Positions 54,625-58,518 of a stretch of 64,000 nucleotides of DNA are shown here, in pieces. Where the stretch lies: contig JADJXE010000001.1 in assembly GCA_016716005.1 (NCBI GenBank), positions 2,767,011 through 2,831,010 on the forward strand, given 5' to 3'. This stretch comes from Acidimicrobiales bacterium (GTDB lineage Bacteria > Actinomycetota > Acidimicrobiia > Acidimicrobiales > JADJXE01). Positions within the stretch are counted from its first letter, which is position 1. Each line of letters opens with the position of its first letter. The translations under genes and the position numbers were made by a program. Under the pieces are notes generated by a model. It was given only the letters and a program-made list of their open reading frames with translations, did not search any database and had not been told where the DNA came from.

Positions 54625-55503
54625 GTGCGGTCGGCGACCCTGATCCCCGACCGGGCCCTGCTGCGGTGGTTCGGCGCGCAGCGGCGCGACCTGCCCTGGC
54701 GCCGCACCCGCGACCCGTGGGCCGTGCTGGTGTCGGAGCTGATGCTCCAGCAGACCCAGGTGGCGCGGGTGATCCCCCGCTACGAGGCGTTCCTCGCCGC
54801 CCTGCCCACCCCGGCGGCGTGCGCGGCCGCCCCGCTGGGCGAGGTCGTGCGCCGCTGGGAAGGCCTCGGCTACAACCGTCGCGCCGTCAACCTCCATCGC
54901 GCCGCGACGGCGGTGGTGGAGCGCCACGGCGGTTCGCTGCCCGCCGCCCTGGACGCCCTGCTCGCGCTGCCGGGGGTGGGGCCCTACACCGCCCGAGCCG
55001 TGCTGGCGTTCGCCTTCGAGGCCGACGTGGGCGTGGTCGACACCAACGCGGCGCGTGTGCTGGCCAGGGTCGCCGGCCGCCGTCTCGGCCGCCGGGACGT
55101 GCAGGGCCTCGCCGACGCCGCGGTGCCGTCCGGAGCGGGATGGGCCTGGAACCAGGCCGTGCTCGACCTGGGTGCGACCGTCTGCGTCGCCACCGCGCCC
55201 GCCTGCGGTCGCTGCCCGGTGGCCCGCGGGTGCGCCTGGCGTGGCGGCCGCGGGCCGGCCGGTCGGGCCGACCCGGCGGTGGGCTCGGCCGGTGTGAGCG
55301 GTGGGCAGTCGCCGTTCGCCGGGTCCGACCGCCAGGGCCGGGGTCGCCTGGTGCACGCCCTGCGGGCGGGGCCGGTGGCCCGGGCCGACCTGGCCGCGGT
55401 GATGGGCTGGCCGGCCGACCGCTCACGCGCCGAGCAGGTCGCGGCCACCGTGCTGGCCGACGGGCTGGCGGTGGAGCGCGACGGCGCGCTCCACCTGCCC
55501 TGA
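54625..55503 (+). CDS. mutY: A/G-specific adenine glycosylase
   Basis: RDLPWR, SELMLQQTQV, GLGYNRR, LPGVGPYTA, VDTN, CX6CX2CX5C Fe-S motif. Confidence 0.93.
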   Translation: MRSATLIPDRALLRWFGAQRRDLPWRRTRDPWAVLVSELMLQQTQVARVIPRYEAFLAALPTPAACAAAPLGEVVRRWEGLGYNRRAVNLHRAATAVVERHGGSLPAALDALLALPGVGPYTARAVLAFAFEADVGVVDTNAARVLARVAGRRLGRRDVQGLADAAVPSGAGWAWNQAVLDLGATVCVATAPACGRCPVARGCAWRGGRGPAGRADPAVGSAGVSGGQSPFAGSDRQGRGRLVHALRAGPVARADLAAVMGWPADRSRAEQVAATVLADGLAVERDGALHLP

Positions 55504-55536: not shown

Positions 55537-56067
55537 CTACGGCCGGTCCCGGTCGGTGAGCTCGGCCAGGATGGCGTCGAGGGCGGCGTCGGCGTGGGCC
55601 CGCATCTCGTCGTCGGTGCGGTCCTGGATGGGGTGGGGCACGAGCACCCGCGCCACCGACGGGAACCCGAGGGCGCCGGCCTGGGCCTCAGCGGCCCGGG
55701 CGAACTCCGACGAGGCCACGAACACGCCGGGTACCCCACGGGACTCGAGATCGACGATGTCGTGCACACTGCACGACGTGCAGCTGCCTCAATCGGCCAG
55801 CGCCTCGATCACCAGGTCGCACGTGATGGAGATCTGGTGGCGCAGGTCGATGGGCGCGGGCTTGGTGAAGGTGGGCTTGCGGTAGCGCTCGACCCGCACG
55901 CCCAGCTCGGTGAGGCGCTCCTCGAGGCGGTCGAGGAACACGTCGCCCCGCGGCTTGGAGATGTCGAGCAGGCCGACGGTGCGCCCCTGCAGGCTCGGCG
56001 GGCGGCGGACCCGCTCGCGCGTGGCCGGCGCCCGCTCGCCGGTGGGATCCAGGATCACGGTCGTCAT
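55537..56067 (-). CDS. UGSC-family selenoprotein (Sec at TGA 55789-55791)
   Basis: In-frame readthrough gives ...LDISKPRG...KPTF...EALAD-U-GSCTSCSVHD...HPIQ, 176 aa. Confidence 0.85.
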
Positions 56068-57509
56068 GCGAGGATCTCCTTGGTCACGGGCTGGCTGCCC
56101 ACGTCGCCGTTGGCCCAGCCACCGATGATCGTCGAGAACAGCCCCGCTCCGCCGCCGGCGTGCACCAGCAGGATCCCGTCGGGGCGGAACTTCGGCAGCG
56201 TGAGCGCTGCGAACGCCTCCGGGACGCCTTCGGCGATCCCGCCGGCGCCCCGGACGATCTCGTCGCCGGGCAGCTGTAGCCGGGCGTGGAGCTCCTCGAC
56301 GATCCGGGCCCGGTCCCAGCCGGCGTCGGCGAAGACACGGGCGTGCTCGGGCCCGACGACGAGCACCGCGTCGAACCCGAGGGGGAGCTTCGGGTGGTGG
56401 ACGGTGCGCAGGCACGACGCCAACGTGCCGGCCAGCGACTCGGGCGTGCGGCTCAGCTGGTCGACCACGCACCGGGGGCCCTCGCCCGCGAACAGCGTGA
56501 CGGTGGAGGTGCCGGCGGGCGCGCCGCGGCTCACCGACAGCGGCTCCCACGGCGATCCCTCCTCGTCCTCGGCGAAGCAGAACGAGAGCTTGCCCGGGTT
56601 GCCGTGCGTGGCCCGGTCGACCTCGCCGGGGCGCCCGCCGCCCACGTTGCGCACCACCAGCTGCAGGGCCCGGCCGATGGCCAGGTTGGCCCGGTTGCCC
56701 TGACCGAGGGCGTTCACGCCGCTGTTCATGCCGAGGCGCCGGCGGATCGGCCCGTTCACCACGATCACCGGCCCCACCGGCATGGTGGTGGCCAGCACAC
56801 CGTGGACGTTGAACTCGTCGGTGCACGCCGCCTCCAGCGCGGCCAGCACCACCGGGAGGTGCTCGGGCAGGCAGCCCGCCATCACCGCGTTGACCGCCAC
56901 CTTCTCGACGGTGCCGGCCACCAGGTCGGGGGGCACCACCGCGACCACCTCATCGGGCTCCCGGCTGGTGCCCTCCAGCATCCGCAGGACCCGCTCGGGG
57001 GTGGGCGGCACCACGGGGAGCCCGTCGGTCCATCCCCGAGCGAAGAGGGCCTCCATCTCGTCCTCGGCCGACGCCAGCTCCACCCGGCGGCTGCGCAGGC
57101 GGTCGCCCGAGAAGCGGGCGCGGAGCTCGTCGACCCGGTCGGGGTCGACCGAGAGCGAGCCGCAGCCGGGCCGGAACTCGGGGAGCCCGGCGCCCAGCCC
57201 GCTGACGCCCGTGAGCGCCTCCCACCGGGATCGCATCCAGCCCTCGGCGCGGGCGACCTCCTCGCCGCCCTCGATCCGCAGCACGGTCGGCACGGTCTCG
57301 ATCGCCCAGTGCCAGGAGACGGCGAGGTCGGCGTCGTGGTCGTGCTCGACCGAGGCCGGGAAGGCCGGGTCGTCCTGGGTGAGCACGGTCAGGCGACCGG
57401 CCGCGGCCAGCTCGGCCAGCACCGGCTCGACGAGCCGGCACGTGGCGCAGTCGCGCTTCACGATCACTGCCAGGCCGTCGGGGAGGGCCGGCGCGGGGGC
57501 CGGGCTCAT
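56064..57509 (-). CDS. Thioredoxin-like CxxC domain fused to the conserved UGSC-partner domain
   Basis: KRDCATC, RPGCGS, GWTDGLPVVPPT, EKVAVNAVMAGC, GNRANLAIGRAL; ATGA overlaps at both ends. Confidence 0.8.
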   Translation of the reverse strand: MSPAPAPALPDGLAVIVKRDCATCRLVEPVLAELAAAGRLTVLTQDDPAFPASVEHDHDADLAVSWHWAIETVPTVLRIEGGEEVARAEGWMRSRWEALTGVSGLGAGLPEFRPGCGSLSVDPDRVDELRARFSGDRLRSRRVELASAEDEMEALFARGWTDGLPVVPPTPERVLRMLEGTSREPDEVVAVVPPDLVAGTVEKVAVNAVMAGCLPEHLPVVLAALEAACTDEFNVHGVLATTMPVGPVIVVNGPIRRRLGMNSGVNALGQGNRANLAIGRALQLVVRNVGGGRPGEVDRATHGNPGKLSFCFAEDEEGSPWEPLSVSRGAPAGTSTVTLFAGEGPRCVVDQLSRTPESLAGTLASCLRTVHHPKLPLGFDAVLVVGPEHARVFADAGWDRARIVEELHARLQLPGDEIVRGAGGIAEGVPEAFAALTLPKFRPDGILLVHAGGGAGLFSTIIGGWANGDVGSQPVTKEILA

Positions 57510-58375
57510 GCCGTGAGGAAGCCGACGATGCGCTGGTTGACCTCGGCCGGGCGCTCGAGGTGCAGGAAGTGCCCGGCCCCCTCGACGATCACCACCTCGC
57601 TGCCCGGCCCGAGCGACGCCAGGGCGCCATCGGCCACCTCGGCGCCGACGCAGCCGTCGTCGGCGCCGTGGAGGTACAGCGTGGGCTGCGGGGTGGGGAG
57701 GGTCGTGGCGATCTGCTCGGGCTCGAGGGCCGGGTCCTTGAACCCGTCGCCGAGCGTCGCCCGGTAGTAGCCGAGGGCAGCCTGCAGGTTGGCGGGGTCG
57801 CGCAGGGCGGCCTTCACGTGGCGCAGCTCGGCGGAGGCGTCGAACCCCGGCGACCAGTCGGCCCACAACCCGTCGATGAAGGCCAGGTCGTCCAGGCCCA
57901 CGACCACGTCGGACAGCGGGTGCTGGAAGAAGAACATGTACCAGCTGCGCTGCAGCTGGGGGTAGCGCAGGAACCCCTGGGCCACCGAGCTGGCCGGGGG
58001 GACCGCGGCGGTGACCACCCGCCGCCAGCGGTCGGGCGCGTGGGCCGCGGCGCCGTAGGTGGCCATCGCCCCCCAGTCGTGGCCGATGATCACGGCGTCG
58101 CCGTCGCCGCCCAGGGCGTCGTGCAGGGCGATGGCGTCGGCCGCCAGCGCGCCCGTCTGGTAGCGGCCGTCGGGGGGCACCGAGGTGGGGGCGTAGCCGC
58201 GCATCCACGGGGCCACCGCCCGGTAGCCGGCGTCGGCCAGGTCTGGCAGCAGGTGGCGCCAGGTGCGGGCGGAGTCGGGGAAGCCGTGCAGGCAGAGGGC
58301 CAGCGGGCCCCGGCCGCACTCGAGGAACGCGAACTCGGCCCCGTTGGCCGTGACCCGGCCCTCGAACAGCTCCAT
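57506..58375 (-). CDS. Alpha/beta hydrolase (epoxide hydrolase-like)
   Basis: LHGFPD, GHDWGA, RSWYMFFFQ, AGHFLH. Confidence 0.92.
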   Translation of the reverse strand: MELFEGRVTANGAEFAFLECGRGPLALCLHGFPDSARTWRHLLPDLADAGYRAVAPWMRGYAPTSVPPDGRYQTGALAADAIALHDALGGDGDAVIIGHDWGAMATYGAAAHAPDRWRRVVTAAVPPASSVAQGFLRYPQLQRSWYMFFFQHPLSDVVVGLDDLAFIDGLWADWSPGFDASAELRHVKAALRDPANLQAALGYYRATLGDGFKDPALEPEQIATTLPTPQPTLYLHGADDGCVGAEVADGALASLGPGSEVVIVEGAGHFLHLERPAEVNQRIVGFLTA

Positions 58376-58442
58376 GCATCGACGCTAACCGCCGGTGGGG
58401 GCGGTCGCCACGGGCCGTCGGCCACCCGCCGACCGCCCGCTC

Positions 58443-58456
58443 GTGACCTGCGTCAC
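58443..58456. promoter_or_regulatory. CRP/GlxR-like palindrome
   Basis: GTGAC-CTGC-GTCAC, i.e. GTGA-N6-TCAC, between divergent genes. Confidence 0.45.
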
Positions 58457-58518
58457 CAACCCTTGCGTCACCTGCCGTTCACCTGACTACCCTGTTGTCT
58501 TCCAGTCCGGGGGGATGG

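Follow-up and report, generated by a model that had tools for sequence, protein, structure and literature searches.

The window analysed here is a 64,000-nucleotide (nt) stretch of an Acidimicrobiales bacterium genome (contig JADJXE010000001.1, positions 2,767,011 to 2,831,010 of the forward strand). Its minus strand carries three successive open frames, for a hydrolase, a middle protein of 481 amino acids (aa) and a UGSC-family selenoprotein, in this order and with two ATGA overlaps between them (Table 1). The original prediction, made from the letters alone, had read the three genes as overlapping by ATGA and as a thiol/selenol relay, and both junctions do read ATGA on the coding strand. Here the two downstream genes are described as the core pair and a probable reductase, and the hydrolase as an accessory to them.

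The unit is flanked by a convergent MutY-like gene ending at 55503 and a divergent metallo-β-lactamase (MBL)-fold gene starting at 58495, and no transporter or pathway gene lies beside it within the window. Judged by this layout, the three genes are an operon. A Shine-Dalgarno-like AAGGAG sequence lies 8 nt upstream of the middle/UGSC overlap.

For comparison, 80 related loci were fetched from one-genome-per-species contigs, and their genes were called by a simple rule based on G+C at third codon positions (GC3). Most of them come from Acidimicrobiia and have further neighbours in common (MBL, MauE-like, oligopeptidase B, MutY and MaoC). The recurrence of the overlaps in these loci is more than chance. 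The middle/UGSC ATGA is found again in 36 of 77 loci, with a gap of at most 49 nt in 73, and the hydrolase/middle ATGA in 21 of 39, with a gap of at most 22 nt in all 39. Four records of metagenome-assembled genomes titled Bifidobacterium or Ferrithrix (L019, L071, L074 and L079) hold Acidimicrobiia-type copies with the same synteny, and the organism names in their titles look unreliable.

Table 1. Positions of the genes, domains and motifs of the operon in the window
Feature	Position	Strand	Basis or remark
Alpha/beta hydrolase, epoxide-hydrolase type, 289 aa	57506..58375	-	PF00561, motifs, PDB relatives
HGFP (residues 30-33) of hydrolase	58277-58288	-	motif
GHDWG (residues 98-102, Asp nucleophile) of hydrolase	58070-58084	-	motif
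GAGHF (residues 266-270, catalytic His) of hydrolase	57566-57580	-	motif
ATGA overlap, hydrolase stop / middle-gene start	57506..57509	-	sequence (+ strand 'tcat')
Middle protein, 481 aa	56064..57509	-	open reading frame
N-terminal thioredoxin-fold domain, residues 1-125	57135..57509	-	Foldseek, PDB profile search, invariant residues
Active site C21-A-T-C24	57438-57449	-	sequence
Linker motif G115-C116-G-S118	57156-57167	-	sequence
Uncatalogued partner domain of about 340 aa, residues 138-481	56067..57098	-	conserved blocks, no family match
Block G-W-T-D-G-L-P-V-V-P-P-T of partner domain	57000-57035	-	conservation
Block M210-A-G-C213 of partner domain	56871-56882	-	conservation
Block R-A-N-x-x-I-G-R-A of partner domain	56667-56693	-	conservation
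Block G-x-P-G-K-x-x-F-C311-x-A-E-D-E of partner domain	56559-56603	-	conservation
Block P-E-H-A of partner domain	56340-56354	-	conservation
ATGA overlap, middle-gene stop / UGSC start	56064..56067	-	sequence (+ strand 'tcat')
UGSC-family selenoprotein, 176 residues, U93	55537..56067	-	TGA 55789-55791 read as residue; NF041046 and PF24696
Motif U93-G-S-C96-T-S-C99, preceded by D	55771-55791	-	sequence; selenocysteine codon TGA 55789-55791
Bacterial SECIS-type hairpin GUCGUGCA-GUG-UGCACGAC	55759..55777	-	19 nt, starts 11 nt after UGA

The UGSC protein and its selenocysteine

The product of the third gene scores 168.5 bits against NCBIfam NF041046, 'UGSC family (seleno)protein', with a cut-off of 125, and 166 bits against Pfam PF24696 with a cut-off of 25. 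Far over both curated cut-offs, it is by profile match a full member of the UGSC family. The TGA read as selenocysteine (Sec) is kept in all 75 related loci that cover the site, with coding conserved on both sides. The peptide around it, IEALAD-U-GSCTSCSVHD, is nearly unchanged across the same 75 loci.

The hairpin behind the UGA, of the Sec insertion sequence (SECIS) type, has an 8-bp stem and a GUG loop and alone folds at -10.9 kcal/mol. Its codons +4 to +10 (ACG TCG TGC AGT GTG CAC GAC) are each a single codon in all 70–72 distinct sequences, while the other fully conserved residues within 20 codons of the TGA use 2–6 synonymous codons each. This synonymous-site invariance indicates a constraint on the RNA, such as a bacterial SECIS would impose. 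The wider stretch of 66 nt behind the UGA folds no more stably than its shuffles (z 0.32), and only the minimal hairpin and its invariance are informative for SECIS. A scan of the operon with Rfam gave nothing relevant, and no Rfam family matches the hairpin.

The genome has tRNA-SeC(tca) and the genes selA (395 bits), adjoining selB (266.5 bits) and selD (328 bits), all above the curated cut-offs. In relatives of the phylum, Cys replaces Sec at the same position, as would be expected for a catalytic redox residue. We regard the selenocysteine predicted at U93 as real. The TGA as a true stop between two small open frames is ruled out by its conservation in 75 of 75 loci, the two-sided coding conservation, the hairpin and the full Sec machinery.

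Of the two motifs claimed earlier for this protein, U-x-x-C and C-x-x-C, both are present, and the second one (C96/C99) turned out to be a property of one clade and not of the whole family. Position 93 is always U or C, and 28 of 31 fusion-type relatives, in which the protein is joined to its partner, retain C96. C99 is specific to the stand-alone UGSC clade, and the fusions have Trp at this position.

A PDB search by sequence found no solved relative of UGSC. The Foldseek matches of its fold are only generic flavodoxin-like or lumazine-synthase-like ones and weak, with the best E of 3.6e-3. In the model of a natural fusion, the UGSC part is a five-stranded β–α sandwich, in which the Sec-equivalent Cys sits between strand 90–96 and helix 99–116. 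As modelled, UGSC is a flavodoxin-like α/β sandwich rather than the thioredoxin-like fold that the literature had guessed.

The middle protein and its fixed pairing with UGSC

The middle protein is modelled by AlphaFold2 in two parts, using 70 homologues and reaching a predicted local distance difference test (pLDDT) of 86.6. The N-terminal part has a conserved loop of the cis-Pro type, V73-P74. Foldseek matches residues 1–125 only to thioredoxins and DsbE (probability about 1.0, best E 5e-3, target template modelling (TM) scores of 0.5–0.6), and a profile search of the PDB finds thioredoxins at 2.5e-4. The domain stays under the thioredoxin cut-offs of PF00085 (12.3 versus 23.5 bits) and TIGR01068 (19.6 versus 96.8 bits). 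By these matches it is a divergent thioredoxin-fold domain and not a canonical thioredoxin. The CATC thioredoxin-like module, the GCGS motif and the MAGC Cys, all pointed out before in this protein, are there, and the thioredoxin fold has gained support.

The second part, the partner domain, matches no family of Pfam or NCBIfam even at E up to 1–10. It has no relative in the PDB either, by profile search or by Foldseek with two models. Its own family is very large: there are at least 8000 clusters at 90% identity, and at 50% identity 6269 representative clusters match with E no higher than 1e-3.

Close conservation was read from 70 homologues of the 481-aa protein and family-wide conservation from 150 diverse representatives. 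In the close set, C21, C24, V73, P74, C116, C229 and C311 are invariant and C213 is kept in at least 90%. The family-wide core consists of D162, G163, P165, P169, A211, G212, G253, G269, N275, G279, R280 and E314, along with C213 (94%), C311 (87%), K307 (87%) and H389 (86%). C116 of GCGS and C229 are conserved only inside the thioredoxin-fused clade. The cysteine conservation expected by the original prediction thus holds across the family for C213 and C311, and is limited to one clade for the GCGS Cys. D162, R280, K307, E314, H389 and C213 make up what looks, from the alignments, like an enzyme-like conserved set.

In 77 of the 80 related loci, the gene immediately after the middle gene is UGSC. 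Two of the exceptions, L040 and L032, have too little contig after the middle gene to judge. Twelve loci labelled Myxococcota or 'Deltaproteobacteria' keep the pair and have none of the Acidimicrobiia synteny. The phylum was sampled with 201 evenly drawn Actinomycetota genomes, 14 of which have the partner domain. Significant UGSC matches occur in these 14 genomes too, and the others lack both, one further UGSC match of 19 bits being noise. Each of the 17 partner copies in these genomes has a UGSC match either as its neighbour or within its own frame. No paralogue of the pair was found in the own genome.

By this distribution the partner and UGSC are a fixed pair across bacteria. The co-conservation of the two downstream genes had been anticipated, and the loci, the 14 genomes and the natural fusions agree with it.

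The fusions of UGSC and partner are numerous, with Cys forms of 530–590 aa and Sec forms whose gene calls begin just after the TGA. A natural one was modelled as one compact body with a pLDDT of 90 and a predicted TM-score (pTM) of 0.91. The partner domain also occurs alone (about 350 aa), as a tandem duplicate, and fused to a FeThRed_B/FtrB-like module. In other loci it adjoins a separate FeThRed_B gene or a thioredoxin-reductase-like flavoprotein. Three different dithiol-type electron-input modules on the partner domain argue for the need of such reducing equivalents.

Two known systems resemble these arrangements. Thioredoxin domains are fused in cis to enzymes, for example in the Trx-MsrA-MsrB protein PilB of Neisseria. 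Here likewise a thioredoxin fold with CxxC is tethered to an enzyme that it would recharge, as we propose, but the catalytic domain belongs to a family not described before, and a separate selenoprotein, instead of a Cys sulfenate in the same chain, would be the acceptor. The other is the catalytic subunit of ferredoxin:thioredoxin reductase (FTR; PF02943), as the partner domain bears an FTR-B-like module in other lineages. One such module, in the representative protein P0187 outside the window, matches NF041072 'FtrB family double-selenoprotein' at 80.6 bits, below the cut-off. By its sequence this match hints at a further selenoprotein family linked to the partner domain.

Around the operon, scans for a sigma-70 promoter and an intrinsic terminator found none and are uninformative at 74% G+C. 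The hydrolase and the MBL-fold gene diverge from a 119-bp region (58376–58494), which contains a GTGA-N6-TCAC box at 58443–58456. If this is a regulator site, it may serve the operon and the MBL-fold gene alike.

A probable selenium-dependent reductase and the competing readings

Pfam GRDB (PF07355) was searched in 31 relatives and gave 16 matches, one of them in the own genome. An in-frame TGA follows just after the matched stretch in 16 of 16. The Sec context is L-L-V/T-P-V-U-P-V/L-C in 14 short forms and T-A-T-U-G-T-G-T-R-C in two full-length GrdB-like genes. An alignment of 102 UGSC sequences, compared by hhalign with GRDB-family selenoproteins, reaches a probability of 92.3% (E 5.6e-7) over 63 columns, with the Sec and the Cys residues of the two sides aligned on each other. 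Masking these two columns leaves 86.6%, and 20 column-shuffled controls give at most 0.7%.

UGSC is best described, at the level of sequence profiles, as a remote and minimal relative of the Sec-bearing module of GrdB/PrdB. The loose analogy with glycine and proline reductases, drawn in the original prediction, has gained sequence backing from this alignment. On both sides the U-x-x-C lies where a β-strand gives way to a helix, with a 'G-I/V-P' strand after it, and both have a second, larger subunit. They differ in that UGSC has just 176 residues and no GrdA- or GrdC-like components nearby. The Grd/Prd reductases depend on a dithiol or thioredoxin-type reductant, as the UGSC pair would.

Short 'mini-PrdB' selenoproteins seem common in the order, making up 14 of the 16 PF07355 matches. 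The one in the own genome is its second selenoprotein gene and lies outside the window (C1:762589-763839, or L098:1111-2361). This short PrdB/GrdB-family gene has the in-frame TGA in L-L-V-P-V-U-P-V-C and adjoins a gene for a fatty-acid-desaturase-like membrane protein. No partner-domain gene is found near it.

We hold it moderately likely that the two downstream genes encode a two-subunit selenoenzyme with its own electron donor, that is, a redox-enzyme architecture. The partner and UGSC probably form a selenium-dependent reductase. GrdB-like bond cleavage by the pair, suggested by analogy, is clearly less probable than this architecture. The sequences show the gene order, the signals for Sec, the fixed pairing with its fusions, the alternative redox modules and the profile kinship with GrdB/PrdB. 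From the locus anatomy and the established knowledge of UxxC/CxxC redox proteins and of Grd/Prd, we infer the joining of the subunits into a complex, each step of the chemistry and the type of substrate as follows.

The partner domain would be the substrate-binding or catalytic subunit, and UGSC would supply the selenolate of U93 at the helix start, with C96 as the resolving thiol. U93 would reduce the substrate or attack it as a nucleophile. Then a selenenylsulfide would form between U93 and C96, or a mixed Se–S bond with Cys213 or Cys311 of the partner. The tethered thioredoxin-fold domain (C21-x-x-C24) would reduce this Se–S bond and be recharged by the cellular thioredoxin reductase. The substrate would most likely be a small imported organic compound, and the epoxide-hydrolase-like gene a lineage-specific accessory outside the core machine.

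The wider neighbourhoods were read in 15 distant contexts, 8 from Actinomycetota and 7 from assemblies. They hold transporters (ABC with NMT1-type binding proteins, TRAP and MFS), regulators (IclR, TetR, MarR and MalT-like) and catabolic enzymes (Amidohydro_2, short-chain dehydrogenases/reductases (SDR), zinc alcohol dehydrogenases (ADH) and luciferase-like monooxygenases). Amidohydro_2 is the commonest non-transport family, with 4 of 72 neighbour proteins, two of which directly adjoin the system. In two further distant loci the adjoining family is DUF6282. By their gene content, these neighbourhoods favour a role in using small imported compounds. One conserved third gene is ruled out, as the immediate neighbours differ across the 15 contexts.

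Some of these contexts are worth recording on their own. DUF6282 (PF19799) lies directly beside or between UGSC and the partner on two unrelated contigs (L091:6647-9493 and L094:4630-8041), one of which also has FeThRed_B and the other a thioredoxin-reductase-like gene. In some lineages this family may recur as a third component. A metagenomic contig (L089:151-9631) holds the system three times in succession, twice as a split pair of UGSC and partner and once as a fusion of 546 aa. Between these copies lie two NMT1-type binding proteins, a gene of the isocitrate/isopropylmalate dehydrogenase family and an ABC permease, and after them come a MalT-like regulator and a family III CoA-transferase.

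A broader proposal is that the pair represents a new class of Sec-dependent reductases. A minimal Sec module of the GrdB/PrdB type would pair with a catalytic subunit whose fold is absent from solved structures, and would draw electrons from a fused or adjacent dithiol module (thioredoxin fold, FTR-like or thioredoxin-reductase-like). Such enzymes would reductively cleave small organics imported by aquatic bacteria. We advance this class only tentatively, as possible yet still more doubtful than assured.

Several observations weigh against the two-subunit selenoenzyme. The hhalign match of UGSC spans 63 columns only, and with the two full-length GrdB-like sequences it drops to 51.6%. By HMMER with E up to 10, UGSC gives no match to PF07355, only PF24696 and a chance DUF116, and so it is not a member of the GRDB family. 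The partner reaches 0.3% against GrdB-family profiles by hhalign, and finds nothing in Pfam, pyruvoyl proprotein families of the PrdA/GrdE type included, at E up to 10. Because the partner resembles neither GrdB nor the proproteins, the GrdB/PrdB analogy lacks a counterpart for the second subunit. The same hhalign value rules out the partner as a GrdB relative, that is, a 'split GrdB'.

On the genomic side, the neighbourhoods are heterogeneous and name no substrate. The counts from the 80 loci are not independent events, because many of these loci are related Acidimicrobiia with common synteny. L039 has no UGSC within 2.3 kb downstream and is the only clear pair break in the survey, and in L077 the UGSC gene is 3.9 kb from the middle gene. 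L039 (6001-9722), with L032 as its sister, is from a Deltaproteobacteria-labelled lineage that keeps the full-length gene for the thioredoxin-fused partner.

A rival reading is general thiol-redox housekeeping. The pair would then be an antioxidant like thioredoxin or peroxiredoxin, or a relay for protein-disulfide reduction, with no dedicated small-molecule substrate and with the large domain as a scaffold or client-binding module. The thioredoxin fold with CxxC and the UxxC motif fit such a role, as do the published surveys placing UGSC with thioredoxin-fold redox selenoproteins and the lack of transporter or pathway genes next to the operon in the window. However, the model of UGSC is a flavodoxin-like sandwich and not a thioredoxin fold, its profile falls on the Sec module of GrdB/PrdB, and the invariant polar residues of the 340-aa partner are enzyme-like. 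Moreover, distant lineages place the pair in transporter or catabolic clusters under IclR, TetR or MarR regulators. We consider housekeeping unlikely.

Another rival takes the hydrolase as an obligate part of one three-gene pathway, in which it makes or consumes the substrate of the selenoenzyme, for example by ring-opening or dehalogenation before a reductive cleavage. The protein itself scores 85 bits against PF00561 (Abhydrolase_1), with a cut-off of 25.8. Its best PDB relatives are epoxide hydrolases, the mycobacterial EphA (5cw2) at 8e-31 and a metagenomic enzyme (5ng7) at 4e-30 over the full length. With these it has in common the fold, the HGFP oxyanion motif, the Asp of GHDWG and the C-terminal His. 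The identity is modest, and dehalogenases acting on haloalkanes and fluoroacetate, also members of the family, match too (1e-14 to 1e-17). By these matches the hydrolase is epoxide-hydrolase-like.

The original prediction had the hydrolase supply or remove the substrate and asked whether it is a typical neighbour of the pair, which it is not. It is directly upstream in 40 of 78 scorable close relatives and not beside the pair in the other 38. It is not found next to the pair in any of the 12 Myxococcota-labelled loci or in most of the distant contexts. On the tree of the middle protein its presence requires at least 7–11 gains or losses, although it is clustered (0 of 500 shuffles were as low) and, where present, the gene is always directly upstream with the tight spacing given above.

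Five further genomes have close partner copies (67–71% identical). Three of these have a hydrolase orthologue (53–59%) on another contig, and the other two have only paralogues of 32–36% identity. A sixth genome, in which the pair is a distant copy, gave no hydrolase match. In favour of a pathway, one genome has a homologue of 31% identity 3.4 kb from its second, fusion-type copy, and other hydrolase families (Amidohydro_2, DUF6282, FAA_hydrolase, SGL lactonase and isochorismatase) are near distant copies; but no single hydrolase family is common to all contexts. By its distribution the hydrolase is a facultative, lineage-specific accessory of the operon and not part of the core machine, and we judge an obligate pathway to be quite improbable.

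The partner as a self-processing proenzyme, cut at G212|C213 to a pyruvoyl or similar electrophile as PrdA/GrdE, would make the pair a functional equivalent of proline/glycine reductase protein B on an amine substrate, and would suit both the best-conserved Cys of the family in A-G-C213, invariant in the fusions, and the kinship of UGSC with the GrdB/PrdB Sec module, but it is very improbable given that the partner has no similarity to GrdB or any Pfam family, the reductase proproteins included, that in the model the motif falls on a short loop connecting two helices within a compact domain, and that amino-acid pathway genes are not enriched nearby.

Previous accounts of UGSC and the meaning of the pair

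The UGSC family has been known since 2007 and, in metagenomes from aquatic habitats, ranks with the most abundant families of selenoproteins (Zhang and Gladyshev 2007, PMC1976440; 2008, PMC2398784). Hyphomonas neptunium is named in the 2007 paper as one of its carriers. The same literature treats it as a protein of thioredoxin-like fold and unknown function (PMC1976440, PMC2398784). Its fusion to a conserved 'Unknown_1' domain was reported in 2008 (PMC2398784). This domain is very probably the partner domain described here. A 2026 review still counts UGSC among the prokaryotic selenoproteins with largely uncharacterised functions.

The present protein has the same U-G-S-C motif, conserved TGA and SECIS hairpin as the published family. 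It departs from the published account in its flavodoxin-like model, its one fixed partner and its profile link to GrdB/PrdB. The literature searched has no description of the fixed partner, of its alternative redox fusions or of the GrdB/PrdB link. Nor did it yield a biochemical characterisation, in agreement with the original prediction. The prediction had also called the system uncharacterised, which is right for its function, but UGSC was already a named family (NF041046/PF24696) with a fusion published in 2008.

The UGSC family, its abundance and one fusion were known already, and the fixed partner, the alternative redox fusions and the GrdB/PrdB link are new relative to the literature searched. 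As UGSC always comes with the partner in the surveyed genomes, thioredoxin-type modules recur and the kinship with GrdB/PrdB is seen, the pair makes a system that should be reconstitutable with a defined electron donor. The epoxide-hydrolase-like gene, an accessory in part of the Acidimicrobiia, is a first, weak handle on the substrate class. A large protein family without Pfam, NCBIfam or PDB coverage, with more than 6000 clusters at 50% identity, would gain a functional context. The new reductase class, if true, would explain the abundance of UGSC in fresh and coastal waters.

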